A stretch of DNA of 64,000 bases from Patescibacteria group bacterium (GCA_038063535.1 JBBTUV010000003.1:83179-147178); one strand, 5' to 3'; counted from the stretch's first letter, positions 2,931-45,934 are shown. Translations and numbers: made by a program. The notes: generated by a model from the letters alone, not told the origin.

Positions 2931-3963
2931 ACTAACACTTAAAGACGGGAGTTCATACGAGGGCATAAGCTTCGGGGCGAGTAGATCCATGGCTGGTGAG
3001 GTAGTCTTTGCAACCGGCATGGTCGGCTACCCGGAGGCGCTCACTGACCCCTCTTTCGCTGGACAGATTTTAGTCCTCACGTATCCCTTGGTCGGGAATT
3101 ACGGCGTGCCGGATGAAAAATTTTGGGAATCGGAGAAAATCCAGGTGGCAGGATTGGTAGTCTCTAATTATATAGATACTCCTTCGCACTGGCAGAGTAA
3201 AATGACTCTGGCCAAATGGTTCCAGAGCGAGAACCTGCCGCTCCTTGAGATCAAAGACACTCGCGGACTCACGCAAAAACTGCGAAGCCAGGGCGTGATG
3301 CTCGGGAAGATCGAGACTGGAAAAAAAATAAACTTTGAAGACCCGAATAAGAGAAACCTGGTCGCGGAAGTTTCGAGGAGAGAAGTTACTCAAGCCGGCG
3401 CAGGTAAAACGACCGTAATTCTCGTTGACTGCGGAGCAAAACGAAATATAGAAAGGAGGCTTGAAGAACGAGGCCTTCGAGTTGTAACGGTGCCTTGGGA
3501 TACCGATCTTGAAAAATTAGATTTCTCGTATAAAGCGGTAGTAATTTCAAACGGTCCCGGTGATCCGAAGATGGCGAGACGCACCGTCGCCAACGTTAAG
3601 AAAATTATGGGCAAAGTTCCGATTCTGGGTATATGTCTGGGCAACCAGATACTTGCGCTTGCTGCCGGCGGGAGCACTTACAAACTCAAATTCGGTCACC
3701 GGAGCCAAAACCAACCAGTCGTCCTCTCCGGCTCGAAGAAATGTTACTTAACGACGCAGAATCACGGTTTTGCTGTCGGGAAAATTCCGCGCAGTTTTCG
3801 TGAATGGTTTCGAAATGCCAATGACGGTACGAACGAGGGGGTTATCCACGAACGTCTGCCCATAATGTCCGTTCAGTTTCATCCGGAATCGTCGCCCGGG
3901 CCGCTCGACACCGACTGGATATTCGATTATTTCCTTAAGCGCGCCAAAATACAAAAGAAATGA
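2917..3963 (+). CDS. carA: Carbamoyl-phosphate synthase small (glutamine amidotransferase) subunit
   Basis: N-terminal CPSase small-chain motif GMVGYPEALTDPSFAGQILV. GATase active site GICLGNQILA and HGF/HPE motifs. Overlaps carB start (ATGA). Confidence 0.9.
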   Translation: MQKARLTLKDGSSYEGISFGASRSMAGEVVFATGMVGYPEALTDPSFAGQILVLTYPLVGNYGVPDEKFWESEKIQVAGLVVSNYIDTPSHWQSKMTLAKWFQSENLPLLEIKDTRGLTQKLRSQGVMLGKIETGKKINFEDPNKRNLVAEVSRREVTQAGAGKTTVILVDCGAKRNIERRLEERGLRVVTVPWDTDLEKLDFSYKAVVISNGPGDPKMARRTVANVKKIMGKVPILGICLGNQILALAAGGSTYKLKFGHRSQNQPVVLSGSKKCYLTTQNHGFAVGKIPRSFREWFRNANDGTNEGVIHERLPIMSVQFHPESSPGPLDTDWIFDYFLKRAKIQKK

Positions 3964-34688: not shown

Positions 34689-35061
34689 GGGGATGCAAGG
34701 CATAGACAGAGGGCCGGCTACCTAGATGCATGTCGAGACGGCGGAGCTCGTAAAACACGCCAAAATGTTAATTGCAAAATTGACTTCAAAGCAATCGCCT
34801 TACTTCGGTAATGCGTTTGCTCCGGTTTTCGCGTAAGCCAAGACCGGTGTTCTCTCCATAGACTTCCGATATATGGAAAGGGCATAAAATTATCGGGATA
34901 GTTCCTGCGAGCGTTTCGGCGCTGGAGCAAAACTAAGAAACTCGGTCGGGAAATATTTGGCGCGTTTAAGAATTTTCCGGTCTAAAACAAAAAAGCGCGC
35001 TACACATGTAGACTTTTAGTCAGCAGCTTTCTGCACGGGGGCTCGATTCCCCCCATCTCCA
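34689..35061 (+). ncRNA. ssrA: tmRNA (SsrA)
   Basis: 5' GGGGAUG pairs with 3' CAUCUCC-A to form a tRNA-Ala-like acceptor stem with a G3:U wobble. T-arm GGGGGCUCGAUUCCCCC. Candidate tag ORF ends ...GNAFAPVFA-TAA at ~34834-34836. Lies directly downstream of smpB. Confidence 0.8.
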
Positions 35062-35092
35062 CAAAACGGATTTATTATGATAACCTTAAGCG

Positions 35093-37046: not shown

Positions 37047-37120
37047 CCGCCCTTAGCTCAGCTGGTTAGAGCACAGAGCTTATACCTCTGGGGTCCTTGG
37101 TTCGAGTCCAAGAGGGCGGA
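37047..37120 (+). tRNA. tRNA-Ile with anticodon UAU (TAT)
   Basis: Cloverleaf: acceptor CCGCCCT/AGGGCGG. D-arm GCTC...GAGC. Anticodon stem CAGAG/CTCTG with loop CTTATAC (U33, anticodon TAT, A37). T-arm CTTGG-TTCGAGT-CCAAG. Discriminator A. No encoded CCA. Confidence 0.85.
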
Positions 37121-37124
37121 CTTT

Positions 37125-41391: not shown

Positions 41392-41404
41392 ATTATTAGG
41401 TTTT

Positions 41405-41558
41405 TAACAACTGAAGACGTCTTGCGTTTGGAAGTGAGGTTTAATTCCTCCACTGTGCCGCAACGGTAATCTGCAAAAGCAGTAGTCCGGTCGTTACGTA
41501 AGATGTATCCCGAGCAGGATGTTCGTTCATGAGTCGCCTGCTCTTAGCAGGTTTTTTT
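41405..41558 (+). promoter_or_regulatory. Candidate cobalamin riboswitch with intrinsic terminator expression platform (terminator GCCTGCT-CTT-AGCAGGC + T7 at ~41536-41558)
   Basis: GAGGTTTAATTCCTCCACTGTGCCGCAACGGTAA resembles the conserved cobalamin-aptamer core (GGUGAAAAUCC...CCCGCCACUGU, recalled from memory). The downstream AGCAGGATG...CCTGC is B12-box-like. An alternative anti-terminator pairing GAGCAGG/CCTGCTC is possible. Located between cobO and the DUF4430 gene. Confidence 0.55.
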
Positions 41559-41566
41559 ATTAAAAT

Positions 41567-42454
41567 ATGAAAAAAATAATTTTTGCTTCCATTATCCTTC
41601 TAACTTTTGGCCGGATTGCTTGGGCAGAAGAGGAAATATTGCCTCCTCCACCGGAGGAAGCCGTGGTTGAAGAAGCTCTGCCAGAACCAATTCCCGAACC
41701 GGAAGTAGTCCCCGAAGTCGAGTTTAGTATTCAAGATGGAGATTTTGCTCTCGAGAAAAGTCTCCACCTTCCGGAAGAGGGCAATGTCTCAATAGAGGGG
41801 CATGATGTGGATGCGCGCAGCGTTTTAGCGGTTCTTTATGCTTGGGACGAGGAGAGTAGTGACTTCGAAATTTCCGAGCTCATTTACTACCCATCATTCT
41901 CCGCTTTCTACGTGAAATGCATAACGCTTGAAGAAGAGAAATGCGACTATTGGATGTACAAGGTAAATAGTGAAGCGCCCTCGGTCGGGATGGATAGTTT
42001 CATTCTCGAAGCGGGCGATCAGGTGGAAATTTATTTTGACGACTCCTTCTTCGGTGAGCCGGAGGAAGATCCTCCGCCGGAAGTTGTGGAAGGTCCTCCC
42101 GAGGAAGAAGAAGGACCGCGAATAACGAGTTCAGGAAGCAGAGGGAAGTCGAGGGAGCCCGAAGAACCCAAGGAAGTGCCAACTGAAGAAGTTATCGTGG
42201 CCGCCCCTGCGGCGCCGCCGGTAGTTCCGGCAATTGTGCCTCCGCCGGTTGTATCCAAAGTTGCAAAAGCCGAGCCGGTCCAAGAGACACAGGAGCAAAT
42301 AGCTACAATCCCAGTATTAGAACCTCCGCCGATCGGACTTTCCGCCGCGCCCATCGAGAGTGGAAATTCTCCAAAAGCTCCGATTGTACTCGGCGGGATT
42401 GCCGCACTTCTGGTTTTGATTTTTCTGGGCAAGAGATTTCTAATGAAAAATTAG
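41567..42454 (+). CDS. Secreted/membrane-anchored DUF4430-like protein (putative surface cobalamin-binding protein) with Pro/Glu-rich low-complexity linker
   Basis: Signal peptide MKKIIFASIILLTFGRIAWA. Motif DYWMYKVNSEAPSVGMDSFILEAGDQVEIYF matches the DUF4430 hallmark (WMY.VNG...L..GD.I.W.Y). C-terminal TM anchor. Sits directly downstream of the riboswitch-like leader. Confidence 0.6.
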   Translation: MKKIIFASIILLTFGRIAWAEEEILPPPPEEAVVEEALPEPIPEPEVVPEVEFSIQDGDFALEKSLHLPEEGNVSIEGHDVDARSVLAVLYAWDEESSDFEISELIYYPSFSAFYVKCITLEEEKCDYWMYKVNSEAPSVGMDSFILEAGDQVEIYFDDSFFGEPEEDPPPEVVEGPPEEEEGPRITSSGSRGKSREPEEPKEVPTEEVIVAAPAAPPVVPAIVPPPVVSKVAKAEPVQETQEQIATIPVLEPPPIGLSAAPIESGNSPKAPIVLGGIAALLVLIFLGKRFLMKN

Positions 42455-42818: not shown

Positions 42819-43058
42819 ATGTTGACCGATTTCATACAAAAAAGGCTAAAAAGCGCTAAATATAAAATCTTGAAAGACAGAAGTTATTTCGGGGAAATTA
42901 CTGGGATGAGAGGGGTTTGGGCTAACGCAAGAACTCTCGAGGCATGCAGGAAAGAGCTTCAAGAAGTGCTTGAAGATTGGCTGGTTCTATCTATCAAGCG
43001 CGATAAGAATATTCCCGGCTTCAATTTCCCGAGTGCTCGAATTTTGAGAGATGCCTAG
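42819..43058 (+). CDS. hicB: HicB-like antitoxin (UPF0150 family)
   Basis: YFGEITGMRGVWANARTLEACRKELQEVLEDWL matches the HicB N-domain pattern (GE.P.L.GC.A.G.T.EEA....EA...W). Confidence 0.65.
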   Translation: MLTDFIQKRLKSAKYKILKDRSYFGEITGMRGVWANARTLEACRKELQEVLEDWLVLSIKRDKNIPGFNFPSARILRDA

Positions 43059-43263
43059 GGCAGTCTCAGCCAGGAAGCTTATCGAAAACCTCCGACTCTT
43101 TGGTTTTACCGGCCCGTATTCGGGAGGCAGGCACATGTTCATGATCAAAGGAAATTTGAAACTGCGAATCCCTAATCCCCACCACGGCGATATTTCTAAG
43201 AGCTTGCTTTCCGAGATCCTTCGTCAGGCCGGAATTTCCGCAAGCGAGTGGAATAAGTTATAA
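43051..43263 (+). CDS. hicA: HicA-like mRNA interferase toxin (YcfA family)
   Basis: KLIENLRLFGFTGPYSGGRHMFM...IPNPHHGDISKSLLSEILRQAGIS matches HicA (K.L...GW...R..GSH....HP......V.P.H.....GT...I.KQAG). Gene order is antitoxin-first. Confidence 0.65.
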   Translation: MPRAVSARKLIENLRLFGFTGPYSGGRHMFMIKGNLKLRIPNPHHGDISKSLLSEILRQAGISASEWNKL

Positions 43264-43276
43264 TAAAAGTTTTTTC

Positions 43277-43305
43277 TTGACTTTTTAACTCAAAAGGTGT
43301 ATAAT
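43277..43305 (+). promoter_or_regulatory. Near-consensus sigma70 promoter TTGACT-17 bp-TATAAT upstream of the DGR target gene
   Basis: Seen directly. A ~150-nt leader follows before the SD AAGGAGA and the ATG at 43456. Confidence 0.6.
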
Positions 43306-43455
43306 TGAAAGGTAAATAAGTTCTTTCAAGCTACTTGTTTACCTGCCTCTGGTGGGCAAAAAGTCGCCCTAGCTTTGAGCGCATAATTTTTTGTGCTTTC
43401 GGAGCTATGGCGACACCTCGGTCGCCTAGCGGACTCATATTTAAGGAGAACGGCA

Positions 43456-44097
43456 ATGTCTACCCAGAACATGCCGGAAGACGAAGTCGAACTTGCGACC
43501 GATGAACAACTCGGTCATATCCTCGACATGTGGCGCCGCCGGCTGAGGGGCCGCAAGCTCACCAACCCCGAGGCGCAGGCCATCATCACCAACGGCGGGT
43601 TCTATCTGCCGGTGATGGACGAGGCCGCTGATGTGCTCGTGGACCGCGTTCGTTCGGAAATCTCGAACACGATCGTTGTTTATCTGAACAACATCAAGCG
43701 CGGACAGACTGTTGAGCAGCTTCTCGATGCGACGGGGCGCAGGCAGTACACGGAGAAGTCTTCCGTCGCCACCATGCCACTCGTCGGCAACGGCGGCCCA
43801 CTCTCGGGTGAGTTCGTCTGGTTCAAGTCAGACGGTGGATTGTCTGACGCCGGAGTGGAGGAGGAGCGTGTCAGGCGCGGTCTCGTCCGCGATCTAGAGA
43901 TGCAGCTCCAGTACAACGCGGAGCACCCGGAGTTCGCCGATACGCACCCAAACGGCGATAGTTGGCCCGCAGACGACAAGGGCAACTACAATTTCGTCGG
44001 CCTCGGCCGGTGGGGCGGCGGGCGTGGGGTCGTTGTGGGCCGCGGCGGCGGCGGCGGGTGGGGTGCTGGCGACTGGTTCGGGGGCCGCCGCAAGTAG
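43456..44097 (+). CDS. DGR target (variable) protein, 213 aa, Gly-rich C-terminal variable region. ATG with AAGGAGA SD; ORF-track GTG at 43393 is probably an extension.
   Basis: The C-terminal 107 nt (VR) are a near-copy of the downstream TR, differing only at TR adenines. GC-rich relative to neighbours. No signal peptide. Confidence 0.85.
   Translation: MSTQNMPEDEVELATDEQLGHILDMWRRRLRGRKLTNPEAQAIITNGGFYLPVMDEAADVLVDRVRSEISNTIVVYLNNIKRGQTVEQLLDATGRRQYTEKSSVATMPLVGNGGPLSGEFVWFKSDGGLSDAGVEEERVRRGLVRDLEMQLQYNAEHPEFADTHPNGDSWPADDKGNYNFVGLGRWGGGRGVVVGRGGGGGWGAGDWFGGRRK
43987..44093 (+). repeat. DGR variable repeat (VR)
   Basis: 107 bp aligned to TR 44436-44542 without gaps. 25 mismatches, all at TR adenines (24 read G in VR, 1 reads T). 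The 3' 21 nt CTGGTTCGGGGGCCGCCGCAA are identical (IMH-like). Confidence 0.9.
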
Positions 44098-44164
44098 TAC
44101 TTAGGACTTAGTCACTGTGGTCTTTTTGACACTTTGACTTTTGTCCTGCATTGGATTTACCTAG

Positions 44165-44205
44165 GGCTCCGCCGTATACCACGTGCGGAGCCGCTTGTTT
44201 TTATA
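44165..44205 (+). terminator. Hairpin GGCTCCGC-(12 nt)-GCGGAGCC + TTGTTTTT downstream of the target gene (terminator; could double as a DGR homing-enhancing hairpin)
   Basis: Perfect 8-bp inverted repeat followed by a T-rich run, seen directly. Confidence 0.5.
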
Positions 44206-44435
44206 TATAATCAAATTGGTAGTAGGTGAATACGCGGGCGATCACGGTTTCCCGCTACCGAACCCAGTACCCATACATCGAGAGTGCTTGTGACCACGTG
44301 TTTCGGGCAGAGTGATGTATGCAGACACTTCAACAAAAAAAGAAGTTACTTGGTATGAAATGCTAGGGCATTGCGATGCCGAATACGATACAACCTCGAG
44401 AGTATTCGAAGGGTGGTGGCACAGAAGGCATTTCA

Positions 44436-44542
44436 TACAATTTCGTCAACCTCAACCAGTGGAACGACGAGCGTAAGGTCAATGTGAACCGCAGCAACGG
44501 CAACAGGTGGAATGCTAGCAACTGGTTCGGGGGCCGCCGCAA
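44436..44542 (+). repeat. DGR template repeat (TR), rich in AAC/AAT codons
   Basis: Invariant copy of the VR with A at every variable position. Its conceptual translation (ORF 44376-44564) is Asn-rich, as is typical of TRs. Confidence 0.9.
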
Positions 44543-44560
44543 CCCACTTCTTTCTCTCCT

Positions 44561-44962
44561 TTAACCGGGAGAGTTTTGTTTTGCAAGCTGTGCAGTTAGT
44601 TGTCCTTGCCATCCTCCGAGCATTTTGCCAACTTCTTCAATTTTCTCTGACAAAACAATATATTTTTTGTTGTCGAATGATTTAGTTTCCCACAATACCA
44701 TCAAAAGTATTTTTATCGTGTCAACTTTCCTCCTGGCCAAGCGAACCCAAGGCAGCTTCTCTTCTTTTGATAAAAAAGTGGCAATCGAAATTGCCTCAAT
44801 TATTTCTACAAACAAGCAATCAATTCTTTCCCCGAGCGAATATCGATGGATTTTTGCTAAAATGTTATGATAGCTATGCCAGAGAATATAGACACTTTTC
44901 AACTTGCCAAGAACCGGCAAAATCGAAGCGGGGGGGGGCTTTGTAGTCATAAATTTCATCAT
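44561..44962 (-). CDS. avd: Avd-like accessory variability determinant (four-helix-bundle / 23S rRNA IVS protein family), encoded on the strand opposite to TR and RT
   Basis: C-terminal ...LSEKIEEVGKMLGGWQGQL resembles Bordetella phage Avd ...IAEVGRILGSWIARV and TIGR02436-type four-helix-bundle proteins. Its reverse-strand coding was verified by hand translation. Confidence 0.65.
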   Translation of the reverse strand: MMKFMTTKPPPASILPVLGKLKSVYILWHSYHNILAKIHRYSLGERIDCLFVEIIEAISIATFLSKEEKLPWVRLARRKVDTIKILLMVLWETKSFDNKKYIVLSEKIEEVGKMLGGWQGQLTAQLAKQNSPG

Positions 44963-45934
44963 ATCATTTCTCTCGAAAACTTGCTGTTAGCGTGGCAAGA
45001 ATTTCTAGTCGGCAAAAAATCCCGGAAAGACGTGCAGGAATTCGAGAGGAATCTGATGGAGAACATAATTTCTTTACATCAAGATCTCGCCAACAAAACA
45101 TACAGGCATGGAAGTTATCACGCCTTCAACATCTCCGATCCCAAGCCCAGAAACATCCACAAAGCAAACGTTCGAGACAGATTGCTCCATCATGCCATCT
45201 ATCGAGTGCTGTACCCATATTTCGACCCAAAATTCATTACCGATTCATATTCTTGCAGGTTGAATAAAGGCACGCATAGGGCCATGAACAGATTCAGGGA
45301 ATTCGCATATAAAGTTTCGAAGAACAACATGCGAACCTGCTGGATTCTCAAATGCGACATCACGAAATTCTTCGCAAGCATCGATCATGATATGTTGAAG
45401 AAGATTTTAGCAAAACATATCGAGGACAGAGATATTCTTCGATTTTTAGGAGGGGTGATAGATAGTTTTCACACTCCCCAAGGTGTTTCCTTGGGGAAGG
45501 GGTTGCCACTTGGGAATTTAACTTCCCAACTCCTAGTGAATGTGTATATGAACGAGTTTGATCAATTTATGAAGCATAGGCTCAAGGTTAAATATTACGT
45601 CCGCTACGCAGACGACTTTGTGATATTAAGTGAAGGCAGAAACCAACTTATTACATTAAGGCGATATATCGCCATTTTCCTGAAAGAAGAATTGAAACTG
45701 GAACTGCCCCCTAACAAGATTTTTGTCAAAACATCAGCTTCCGGGATAGATTTCTTGGGCTGGGTGCATTTCCCGGAGCATAGAGTGCTGAGAACTACAA
45801 CAAAAAGGAGAATGCTAAAAAATTTAAAAGCAAATTATGAGAACGAAACCCTGCAATCTTATCTGGGGATGCTCTCGCACGGGAATACTCAACTTACTCA
45901 AAATGAAATTCGCCAGCTCGCTCACGCACTCTAG
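44867..45934 (+). CDS. DGR reverse transcriptase
   Basis: RT motifs: DPKPRNIHKA...DRLLHHAIYRVL (domains 1-2), LPLGNLTSQLL (DGR-specific [I/L]GxxxSQ), YVRYADDFVIL (YxDD box). 355 aa. Its 5' ~95 nt overlap avd antisense. Confidence 0.9.
   Translation: MIAMPENIDTFQLAKNRQNRSGGGLCSHKFHHIISLENLLLAWQEFLVGKKSRKDVQEFERNLMENIISLHQDLANKTYRHGSYHAFNISDPKPRNIHKANVRDRLLHHAIYRVLYPYFDPKFITDSYSCRLNKGTHRAMNRFREFAYKVSKNNMRTCWILKCDITKFFASIDHDMLKKILAKHIEDRDILRFLGGVIDSFHTPQGVSLGKGLPLGNLTSQLLVNVYMNEFDQFMKHRLKVKYYVRYADDFVILSEGRNQLITLRRYIAIFLKEELKLELPPNKIFVKTSASGIDFLGWVHFPEHRVLRTTTKRRMLKNLKANYENETLQSYLGMLSHGNTQLTQNEIRQLAHAL

Follow-up and report, generated by a model that had tools for sequence, protein, structure and literature searches.

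The segment at positions 43277–45934 of the window (the whole 64,000-nt stretch of DNA that was analysed) is very probably a chromosomal diversity-generating retroelement (DGR) of the Patescibacteria (CPR) type. In agreement with the original prediction of a complete DGR, it brings together a DGR-type reverse transcriptase (RT), an Avd homologue, a non-coding template region (TR), a variable region (VR) at the 3′ end of an open reading frame, a G+C-rich 3′ end shared by the two repeats, and a target protein modelled with a fold resembling that of C-type lectins. The window also carries tmRNA, tRNAs and recG, and a groundwater Patescibacteria MAG has an identical protein in its annotation. The parts, with strand in parentheses, are arranged as follows.

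43277–43305 (+): sigma-70-like promoter of the target gene, TTGACT-17-TATAAT, 11/12 positions matching
43306–43455 (+): conserved 150-nt 5′ leader of the target, from alignment and consensus fold
43456–44097 (+): target (variable protein) gene, 213 aa, ATG at 43456; helical N-terminal part and C-type-lectin-like C-terminal domain by model
43987–44093 (+): VR, 107 nt, gapless against the TR, with 25 mismatches at TR adenines
44073–44093 (+): G+C-rich 3′ end common to VR and TR (IMH-like), the last 21 nt identical
44103–44147 (+): imperfect hairpin 10 nt 3′ of the VR, conserved; candidate target-site recognition element
44165–44202 (+): G+C-rich hairpin (44165–44192) and T run, a terminator-like end of the target transcript, from folding
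44206–44211 (+): TATAAT, which may serve the TR RNA as −10 promoter element (TGATATAAT in relatives), in a block conserved in the alignment
44218–44435 (+): structured 5′ domain of the TR-containing non-coding RNA, from covariation
44436–44542 (+): TR, non-coding, from repeat alignment; 10 AAY codons
44546–44583 (+): RNA elements directly 3′ of the TR (pairing and stem-loop, with compensatory changes in relatives)
44561–44962 (−): avd (accessory variability determinant), ORF of 133 aa, from profile matches
44867–45934 (+): RT of the DGR type, 355 aa when reading starts at ATG 44867 and crosses the G tract
44930–44938 (no strand assigned): G9 homopolymer overlapping the 5′ ends of avd and RT, from length comparison

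The two repeats, both on the plus strand, align without gaps over the length and coordinates originally given, with 342 nt between them and 449 nt from start to start. Every mismatch (25/25) falls at a TR adenine and the non-adenine positions are identical (76/76), as originally stated for the mismatches; the alignment thus does not show the differences at other TR positions that had been named as a refutation. The published threshold asks that 75% or more of the mismatches in a TR/VR pair fall at TR adenines (PMC8144416). When all adenines of the TR are turned into N, the resulting pattern occurs at exactly two sites in the 64 kb, namely the VR and the TR, versus 0 in 100 shuffles; a chance repeat is rejected. 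The terminal 21 nt, described beforehand as identical and IMH-like, are limited to these same sites, the only two matches in the window with up to three mismatches allowed. Neither of these searches uncovered a further VR or TR copy in the window, and a degenerate DNA pattern of the VR/TR 3′ end, run over genome contigs, returned only single chance matches in unrelated phyla. The VR ends 4 nt ahead of the stop codon of the target ORF, and the TR lies outside that gene, 324 nt 5′ of the RT ATG. Read in the target frame, 10 of the 35 TR codons are AAY, in keeping with the predicted richness in AAC/AAT, and the changed VR positions are all at codon position 1 or 2. A 62-aa ORF spanning the TR, which is annotated as a gene in public records, is probably spurious.

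The RT reading frame contains both motifs that had been attributed to it, YVRYADD and LGNLTSQ. DGR RTs have the signature [I/V/L]GxxxSQ in place of QGxxxSP (PMC7826257), and LGNLTSQ aligns to IGSLTSQ of the Bordetella phage DGR RT (bRT), whose R74 is also conserved. The protein matches the RT profiles Pfam RVT_1 (9.3e-25) and PHROG 1423 (2.8e-109), and its best solved relative is bRT as found in the BPP-1 DGR ribonucleoprotein (8ub7, 1.1e-39). The alternative is that the enzyme belongs with group II intron, retron or defence-associated RTs and that the 107-nt repeat arose by an unrelated duplication. In its favour one could cite the best NCBIfam match, which is to the group II intron RT/maturase model and scores 149 bits where the cut-off is 300, the generic RT and DRT models given by PADLOC, and the source labels of homologues as “retron-type” or “group II intron” RT. 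All such matches, however, are generic or under cut-off, the non-DGR RT models of NCBIfam far under it, and among solved structures group II intron and retron-type RTs reach only about 1e-21 (2e-21 or weaker), so that bRT leads the solved relatives by 18 orders of magnitude. Since there are also a DGR motif, an adjacent Avd gene and a repeat whose copies differ only where one of them has adenine, and since the Rfam results contain neither an intron RNA nor a retron msr/msd family, the non-DGR reading retains practically no probability and is rejected, and the sequence comparisons support an RT of the DGR type. Homologues of the RT number at least 7992 at E ≤ 1e-60; their taxon-bearing names are mostly those of CPR lineages, and the others are generic (“bacterium”).

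The Avd-like ORF of the original prediction does lie between the TR and the RT; contrary to what had been assumed, it is encoded on the minus strand, so that it runs divergently from the RT, whose start it overlaps. Its conserved core, of 119 aa, starts at TTG 44920. It matches Pfam bAvd (1.1e-8) and the NCBIfam DGR Avd model (DivGenRetAVD, 1.6e-13), both under the curated cut-offs, as well as the PHROG family “Avd protein of DGR” (4.2e-13). A low-confidence single-sequence model (pLDDT 60) has four helices, and Foldseek places Avd chains among its top matches at E-values that are not significant; a sequence search for solved relatives of Avd found none. The order target (+), gap, avd (−), RT (+) is the same in three related sequences (L002, L005 and L136) and in the P0007 contig.

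The target gene is equipped with expression signals of its own. Its promoter, near-consensus as predicted, is kept in relatives whose upstream genes differ. The long leader that had also been noticed is conserved in relatives and contains a long hairpin (43364–43385 with 43392–43413), and its GTTCTT (43320–43325) could pair with the Shine-Dalgarno region (43446–43451); the consensus fold of six relatives comprises 29 pairs, with compensatory changes in nine, and Rfam returned on this leader only a weak sub-threshold match, DUF3800-V (E = 0.16). The encoded protein has no match in Pfam (FGE-sulfatase and DUF1566 included), NCBIfam, PHROG or PADLOC, as expected from the earlier statement that it lacks a recognised domain. 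Its Kyte–Doolittle hydropathy over 19 residues peaks at 0.78 and it thus has no hydrophobic segment, which, with hydropathy as the only test, agrees with the predicted lack of a signal peptide. The structure prediction suggested at the outset yielded a confident model whose C-terminal half resembles C-type lectin folds, as had been surmised from the VR-encoded tail, and in this model the variable residues would occupy the last strands. Foldseek found no significant match of the model in the PDB, and a sequence search with the target family against the PDB gave chance matches only. This family comprises over 1200 un-annotated clusters at 50% identity, and its VR-encoded tail is hypervariable around fixed scaffold W, R, V and G residues; a closer target alignment used as query recovered 0 loci from the genome collection and 2 from the metagenome collection.

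Where a hairpin after the VR had been claimed, two were found, in a region whose DNA fold z-score is −3.7 (44060–44215). The one at 44103–44147, whose sequence is kept in five relatives, is by analogy with other DGRs a candidate target-site recognition element; the G+C-rich one followed by the T run is replaced at the same place in relatives by a hairpin of other sequence. Shortly 3′ of it stands the TATAAT at 44206–44211, for which a −35 element was not found and which we regard as a putative −10. The TR appears to sit within a discrete non-coding RNA of ~370 nt that has promoter-like and terminator-like elements of its own and a structure supported by covariation. The 5′ domain of this RNA forms helices at 44234–44255, 44272–44321, 44353–44365 with 44426–44438, and 44389–44418, and the consensus of five sequences has 76 pairs (94% paired), 30 of them with compensatory changes, compared with 13.3 ± 2.6 in shuffles and 3–7 when the partners were slid. 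On the 3′ side of the TR, ACTTCTTT (44546–44553) pairs with AAAGAAGT (44339–44346) on its 5′ side, and a stem-loop at 44554–44573 is followed by TTTTGTTTTG; the helix and the stem-loop both show compensatory changes in relatives, and they resemble the flanking duplex and downstream Avd-binding stem-loop in the RNA of other DGRs (10.1101/2023.10.23.563531). Rfam has no family for the leader, the VR–TR spacer or the TR RNA, with sub-threshold matches at chance level only, and a search of viral contigs for the conserved TR-RNA motif gave 0 matches.

These parts can be assembled into a mechanism, each step of which is inferred from the BPP-1 model; what comes directly from the present element is its sequence parts, their families, the fold resemblance, the RNA covariation and the allele identity described below. 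The ~370-nt non-coding RNA would be transcribed from its own promoter (~44206–44211) to the stem-loop and U run (~44583), and in it the structured 5′ domain would be followed by the 107-nt TR and then by 3′ elements whose pairing partners lie in the 5′ domain. The RT and the divergently encoded Avd would then copy the TR into cDNA, misincorporating opposite adenines only, and this cDNA would take the place of the VR at the 3′ end of the 213-aa gene; the G+C-rich 3′ end that both repeats have would direct the replacement, probably together with the hairpin directly 3′ of the VR. In the last homing event on record, 25 of 31 template adenines would have been changed, 24 of them to G, giving the sole allele seen in four assemblies.

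The resulting substitution spectrum is peculiar. The claim of adenine-specific divergence holds as to position, all changes being at TR adenines, but the spectrum is not the usual A-to-N mixture seen in BPP-1 and in three relatives: 24 of the 25 changes are A-to-G, one is A-to-T and none is A-to-C. Outside the terminal TACAAT and GCAA, 25 of 26 TR adenines are altered. Published bRT spectra would yield 24 or more G in 25 changes with a probability of 1e-10 to 4e-5. Adenine-specific VR/TR differences, counted in L002, L005, L006, L007 and L136, indicate that a strong A-to-G bias is common to some relatives (L136 has 15 G, 1 T and 0 C), with the G share of changes forming a continuous range from 33% to 96%. 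GC-biased repair was rejected as a source of the A-to-G excess, as it would favour C too and changes to C are 0/25; so was off-target mutagenesis depleting the target gene of A, in which the rarest coding-strand base is T, not A. A different proposal is that A-to-inosine deamination in the TR RNA, or adenine deamination in DNA, precedes copying and that the RT then reads G faithfully. It would fit the near-complete conversion, its poor match to published bRT spectra, the like pattern in L136, and the faithful copying by bRT–Avd of bases with a C6 carbonyl (PMC7826257). We nevertheless consider it very unlikely: no deaminase linked to the cassette was seen in the part of the neighbouring genes looked at, the G share in relatives is continuous, one change is to T, and C is already the dominant misincorporation of bRT in E. 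coli, at 59% of errors (PMC12875486), so a stronger bRT-like bias or a dNTP-pool effect is the simpler account. The all-G VR might also be an assembly artefact, a per-site consensus of a hypervariable population that would come out all-G provided that every variable site had G as its most frequent base, and one contig (L134) does break in the VR–TR spacer, at 44233. The same haplotype was, however, assembled independently at 3x and 57x coverage, by different pipelines and from different samples, and De Bruijn contigs would be expected to track real k-mers over many variable sites rather than a per-site consensus; an artefact is accordingly extremely improbable and is rejected.

A related question is whether the element is still active. 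One and the same VR allele is present in the window, L011, L133 (57x coverage, on a 292-kb contig) and L135, and the comparison of these four assemblies at contig level thus gives no sign of ongoing VR diversification in this organism. It is conceivable, if somewhat unlikely in our judgement, that this is a DGR by descent that is now silent or off, its VR frozen by selection or by loss of RT activity, for example via the G tract. The shared allele, found across several samples and assembled straight through in the 57x contig, is what such silencing would leave; a G8 variant exists of the tract that the RT reading must cross; and there is decay within the family, L002 having an RT without its C-terminal part, and L001 and L003/L004 having targets without adjacent avd/RT and without a TR in the locus examined. 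Set against this, every ORF in the window is intact, the promoters and RNA elements are conserved, minority variants are compatible with identity at contig level, and the VR/TR identity at all 76 non-adenine positions, synonymous sites included, implies that the last homing was recent relative to point mutation.

The G tract deserves consideration in its own right. It is the only G/C run of at least 7 in the 64-kb window, and it is situated downstream of ATG 44867 and ahead of the RT core, two points between which no further start codon occurs. In other sequences the tract is G8 (L011) or, at the same place, G9–G11 (L002, L005, L012, L136, L137), the G10 of L137 and the G11 of L136 both being in frame. 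G9 is found in four other sequences and G8 in one contig (L011), where at only 3x coverage it may be an error. Some relatives have an ATG 3′ of the tract, which would there be located in the 5′ UTR. Poly-G contingency loci of Neisseria and Campylobacter are phase-variable homopolymeric tracts. Like them, the present element has a G/C run of at least 9 near the 5′ end of an ORF, the run varies in length (G9 vs. G8 in near-identical sequences, G9–G11 in relatives), and a one-base change shifts the RT frame from its ATG. Unlike them, it offers a single length variant, at 3x, and is a candidate for switching only, and in some relatives the tract is 5′ of the ATG. On these sequence features, the tract at the divergent avd/RT 5′ ends could act as a phase switch. 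A more elaborate proposal, which we put forward tentatively and consider unlikely, is that G9–G11 is a slipped-strand on/off switch for the DGR family that allows burst diversification, the fixed A-to-G VR being the product of one burst with essentially C-only misincorporation opposite A. Such a C-only regime might be a property of the RT or reflect host dNTP pools.

Compared with the BPP-1 DGR (mtd, avd, TR, brt), the cassette shares a bRT-homologous RT with [I/V/L]GxxxSQ and R74, an Avd partner, adenine-only TR-to-VR divergence, AAY codons in the TR, a G+C-rich shared 3′ end with a hairpin after the VR, and a CLec-type fold (here by model) whose C-terminus the VR encodes. Unlike in BPP-1, avd is on the opposite strand and 3′ of the TR, so that the RNA 5′ of the TR is a dedicated structured non-coding domain of ~220 nt rather than avd coding sequence, and the TR is apparently transcribed separately, between promoter-like and terminator-like elements. 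Furthermore, the element is chromosomal and not phage-borne, the target is a 213-aa protein without signal peptide or membrane segment where BPP-1 has a phage tail-fibre protein, the 21 nt common to VR and TR show no difference whereas the BPP-1 IMH and IMH* differ, and the spectrum is nearly A-to-G only. DGRs of this type are already known to be very frequent among groundwater bacteria of the CPR, and the group they make up is huge. CPR DGRs form their own clade (DGR clade 2), with targets that lack transmembrane segments or known domains and for which a C-Lec-like fold was anticipated (Roux et al. 2021, PMC8144416). The present element likewise is cellular and chromosomal in a groundwater Patescibacteria MAG, has a target in which no transmembrane segment, signal sequence or Pfam domain was recognised, and has RT homologues in the thousands whose taxon-bearing names come from CPR lineages; judged by host, target type and RT homologue names, nothing tested contradicts membership in this clade. 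In common with Mtd, TvpA and TaqVP (C-type-lectin/FGE-type folds), the VR encodes the last ~35 residues, an alternation of variable positions with an invariant W, R, V and G scaffold; unlike these proteins, the target has no sequence similarity to any solved protein, and its domain is very small, at ~140 residues after a three-helix N-terminal part. A literature search, aimed elsewhere than at the leader and RNA domain, found no description of the conserved G tract, the leader or the 5′ RNA domain.

Finally, a DGR as such adds little, CPR genomes being DGR-rich and close RT homologues numbering in the thousands in databases. The model of the target as a minimal C-type-lectin-like domain bears on whether CPR DGR targets are truly non-membrane proteins. 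The modular anatomy, with a target that has its own promoter and leader, a TR in a separate RNA, and divergent avd and RT, is clean enough to make the cassette a compact candidate for reconstitution. The oddities of this otherwise ordinary cassette are the near-pure A-to-G VR and the conserved run of 9–11 G at the start of the RT; if confirmed, the A-to-G bias and the mutable G tract would offer something new on the natural control of both the activity and the mutational spectrum of DGRs.

The cassette at 43277–45934 was correctly interpreted as a diversity-generating retroelement (DGR), and the observation on which that interpretation rests is real. Its variable region (VR, 43987–44093) and template region (TR, 44436–44542), 107 nt each, align without gaps, all 25 mismatches fall at adenines of the TR, and all 76 non-adenine positions are identical, precisely the adenine-specific divergence originally described; what requires correction is the spectrum of that divergence, A-to-G making up all but one of the 25 changes. 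When every adenine of the TR is replaced by N, the resulting pattern occurs at two sites in the window, the VR and the TR themselves, and at none in 100 shuffles. The last 21 nt of the two repeats (CTGGTTCGGGGGCCGCCGCAA) are identical, resembling an IMH element, and are found nowhere else in the window. In the frame of the target gene, 10 of the 35 TR codons are AAY, in keeping with the AAC/AAT richness noted earlier, and the changes in the VR are confined to codon positions 1 and 2.

The 355-aa reverse transcriptase (RT) bears both LGNLTSQ and YVRYADD, as claimed. LGNLTSQ aligns with the IGSLTSQ of bRT, the RT of the reference DGR from Bordetella phage BPP-1, and R74 of bRT is conserved; published work gives [I/V/L]GxxxSQ as the signature of DGR RTs and describes what R74 and I181 do (PMC7826257). 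Pfam identifies the protein as RVT_1 (9.3e-25). Of the solved structures, the Bordetella phage DGR ribonucleoprotein (8ub7, chain A) stands far ahead at 1.1e-39, and the next relatives are group II intron and retron-type RTs at 2e-21 or weaker. In NCBIfam, which holds no DGR RT model, the best match is a group II intron RT, whose 149 bits fall short of the cut-off of 300; PADLOC returns generic RT and DRT models only, and PHROG 1423 matches at 2.8e-109. Homologues number at least 7992 at E<=1e-60; the sources that name a taxon belong to the Patescibacteria (CPR), namely Nomurabacteria, Berkelbacteria, Parcubacteria, Azambacteria, Zambryskibacteria, Harrisonbacteria and Paceibacterota, and the remaining source names are generic (e.g., 'bacterium'). 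Public gene calls start the RT at GTG 45032 (45032–45934, 300 aa), thereby losing conserved N-terminal sequence.

An Avd-like protein is indeed present, although its strand must be corrected: the open reading frame at 44561–44962 lies on the minus strand. It matches Pfam bAvd (1.1e-8) and the NCBIfam 'DGR protein Avd' (1.6e-13), both under the curated cut-offs, as well as the PHROG 'Avd protein of DGR' (4.2e-13). The anticipated four long helices appear in a single-sequence model of low confidence (pLDDT 60), and Avd 4dwl is among its top Foldseek matches, as are the Avd chains of 8ub7, at non-significant E-values.

The target protein of 213 aa starts at ATG 43456, with AGGAG eight bases 5′ of a start that is kept in relatives; public gene calls begin it at Met6 (43471–44097, 208 aa). 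Consistent with the original prediction, it has no match in Pfam, NCBIfam, PHROGs or PADLOC, and no hydrophobic stretch (Kyte–Doolittle maximum 0.78 over 19 residues). A Patescibacteria MAG carries an annotated protein identical to the target. A word-indexed search recovers only 16 homologues; an exhaustive profile search yields 1221 cluster representatives at E<=0.001, or 917 when the threshold is 1e-10, with a conserved core at residues 70–212. Within the VR-encoded tail of the family alignment, fixed W, R, V and G alternate with positions that take almost any residue. The AlphaFold2 model (17-sequence alignment, mean pLDDT 90.2, pTM 0.79) shows a mixed alpha/beta domain after three N-terminal helices, its last strands being encoded by the VR. 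Foldseek against the PDB finds nothing significant for this model; the weak matches include the C-type lectins (CLec) CD23 and langerin, while Mtd, TvpA and TaqVP are absent from the matches listed. The proposed resemblance to CLec-type variable proteins thus stands at moderate strength, as a reading of a predicted fold. Orphan targets occur in three relatives (L001, 6001–6636; L003, 5464–6084; L004, 2523–3143): the 2–6 kb fetched on each side contain neither avd nor RT nor TR. In a fourth, L002 (2258–3271), the RT lacks the C-terminal part that would follow the YADD region. In some genomes, it seems, the cassette is decaying or works in trans.

Relatives whose targets are 45–81% identical share the layout of target (+), a gap of roughly 340–490 nt, avd (−) and RT (+), and in each of them the mismatches between VR and TR fall almost exclusively on adenines of the TR. 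The VR-to-TR spacer is likewise conserved, and together with the 3′ flank of the TR it carries the following elements.

Elements flanking the TR, in window coordinates and read in the direction of the target gene
44103–44147: conserved imperfect hairpin, 10 nt after the VR
44165–44202: terminator-like element, in which a T run comes after a hairpin of variable sequence
44206–44211: TATAAT, a conserved TGATATAAT-like putative −10 element
44218–44435: highly conserved segment of about 220 nt
44546–44583: ACTTCTTT, stem-loop and U run, 3′ of the TR

Unlike in BPP-1, avd here lies on the opposite strand, and the RNA upstream of the TR is therefore a dedicated non-coding domain. In the RNAalifold prediction for five sequences, helices fill the 5′ segment of the TR RNA, a long-range duplex (44339–44346 with 44546–44553) encloses the TR, and a helix (44353–44365 with 44426–44438) abuts the start of the TR. 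The 76 non-TR pairs are 94% paired, and 30 show compensatory changes versus 13.3 +/- 2.6 in shuffles, of which 0 of 500 reach 30; sliding the partners by 1–3 columns leaves 3–7. This argues well, if not finally, for the predicted structure, which was drawn from the same five-sequence alignment. These features fit the two RNA elements described in 207 of 278 Avd-type DGRs, CPR included (Handa et al., 10.1101/2023.10.23.563531); Rfam holds no family matching the TR RNA. A 62-aa open reading frame called publicly across the TR (44376–44564) is probably spurious. A same-organism contig from SRR32696708 (L134) breaks within the VR–TR spacer, ending at window 44233, perhaps because of the VR/TR repeat or of heterogeneity hidden in the VR.

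The promoter proposed for the target (TTGACT-17-TATAAT, 43277–43305) is borne out, matching at 11 of 12 positions, and with its 150-nt leader (43306–43455) it is kept in relatives despite different upstream genes. The consensus fold of the leader comprises a long hairpin (43364–43385 with 43392–43413) with variable apical insertions and some covariation, and a 6-bp pairing is predicted between GTTCTT (43320–43325) and the Shine–Dalgarno region (43446–43451), which suggests that the target may be under translational control. Rfam gives the leader a weak, sub-threshold match only (DUF3800-V, E=0.16).

The base that replaces each TR adenine differs between members of this one family.

VR bases at TR adenines (G / T / C / kept A)
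Window: 24 / 1 / 0 / 6
L136, an unrelated CPR genome (VR 2658–2760, TR 3079–3180): 15 / 1 / 0 / 13
L009 (TR inferred from a relative): 16 / 1 / 2 / 10
L006: 11 / 2 / 4 / 10
L005: 8 / 9 / 3 / 10
L007: 6 / 7 / 2 / 16
L002: 4 / 6 / 2 / 17

In the window the changes span 43999–44071, and five of the six kept adenines lie at the two ends of the repeat. G accounts for 24 of 25 changes here, 15 of 16 in L136 and 16 of 19 in L009, as compared with 33–40% in L002, L005 and L007; the window differs from L002, L005, L006 and L007 pooled at Fisher p = 6e-6. On the sense strand, bRT errs in vitro to T in 43%, G in 34.5% and C in 22.5% of cases (PMC7826257, percentages as quoted in PMC12875486), changing about 52% of adenines (PMC7826257), and in E. 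coli to G in 59%, C in 26% and T in 14% (PMC12875486). At least 24 G in 25 changes would have a probability of 1e-10 to 4e-5 under these published spectra, and of 0.09 if G made up 85% of the changes, much as it does in L136 and L009. Editing of the TR RNA to inosine, or selection, could possibly yield the spectrum of the window; the simplest reading is that misincorporation is strongly C-biased in part of the family, or in its hosts, with the window at the extreme.

In every locus with a known avd/RT junction, a G tract sits where these two divergent genes overlap at their 5′ ends, and in the window it is the sole G/C homopolymer of seven or more in 64 kb. Over 2 kb, the same-organism contig L011 differs from the window only by one substitution (44833) and by G8 for G9.

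Length of the G tract at the avd/RT junction
Window: G9 (44930–44938)
L011, 3x contig: G8 (1112–1119)
L002: G9 (2260–2268)
L005: G10 (3919–3928)
L012: G10
L136: G11 (3555–3565)
L137: G10 (3516–3525)

In the window, L136 and L137, no start codon (ATG, GTG or TTG) separates the tract from the conserved RT core. Translation of the RT must therefore begin upstream and cross the tract, whose length preserves that frame in each of these three loci; L002 and L005 have an ATG 13–16 nt after the tract. On the minus strand, the C run lies inside the longer avd frame, 5–9 nt upstream of the conserved TTG that opens the Avd core. GGG(G) recurs in the N-terminal extension of 39 of 120 called RT homologues. 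Judged from sequence, the tract may be a slipped-strand on/off phase switch; alternatively, it could be a Shine–Dalgarno-like element or a site of transcriptional slippage, and the G8 of L011 may be a low-coverage error. A text search of the literature found no paper tying DGRs to homopolymeric-tract phase variation, the only co-mention being a Campylobacter phage-resistance study.

Outside the VR, the target gene exceeds its surroundings in G+C in all six loci compared, by 10–25 percentage points.

G+C of the target outside the VR versus the rest of the locus
Window (43456–43986): 60.5% versus 49.2%
L002: 60.0% versus 35.5%
L136: 58.0% versus 44.5%
L001: 53.6% versus 40.5%
L005: 51.4% versus 39.6%
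L003: 48.5% versus 38.0%

RT (41.9%) and avd (38.8%) fall below the average for the window. On the target coding strand T, not A, is the scarcest base, and simple adenine depletion is therefore rejected as the source of this richness. Immediately 5′ of the target lies a HicB-like (UPF0150)/HicA toxin–antitoxin pair (42819–43263), which is also found 5′ of the target in L136 (1584–2034) in the opposite orientation; other relatives have different genes there. Further upstream comes an AdoCbl riboswitch (41403–41546) that, at 55.7 bits, exceeds the gathering score. The protein that follows it (41567–42454, 295 aa) has a DUF4430 domain, stretches rich in Pro/Glu and a hydrophobic segment at the N-terminus. 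The window carries two tRNAs, one a tRNA-Ile with anticodon TAT (37047–37121), a tmRNA gene (34689–35064, 131.5 bits) and recG besides this riboswitch, and it is chromosomal.

DNA identical to that of the window is present in contigs with names that indicate the Hainich groundwater wells. The VR is identical to that of the window in three same-organism assemblies: L011 (ERZ1292630, 3x), L133 (ERZ1292624, a 292-kb contig at 57x) and L135 (SRR32696680). Among these assemblies there is no sign of current diversification at the contig level, and a de Bruijn contig running through the VR at 57x implies, we infer, one dominant haplotype. By analogy with BPP-1, the mechanism would be that of a DGR. 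Given a DGR clade restricted to Patescibacteria (Roux et al., 2021, PMC8144416) and the abundance of CPR RT homologues, the cassette fits a known, abundant class and is one more of a very common kind. Within it, the modestly interesting leads, of novelty not established, are the structured 5′ RNA domain, the conserved leader, the A-to-G spectrum, the G tract and the G+C-rich target.
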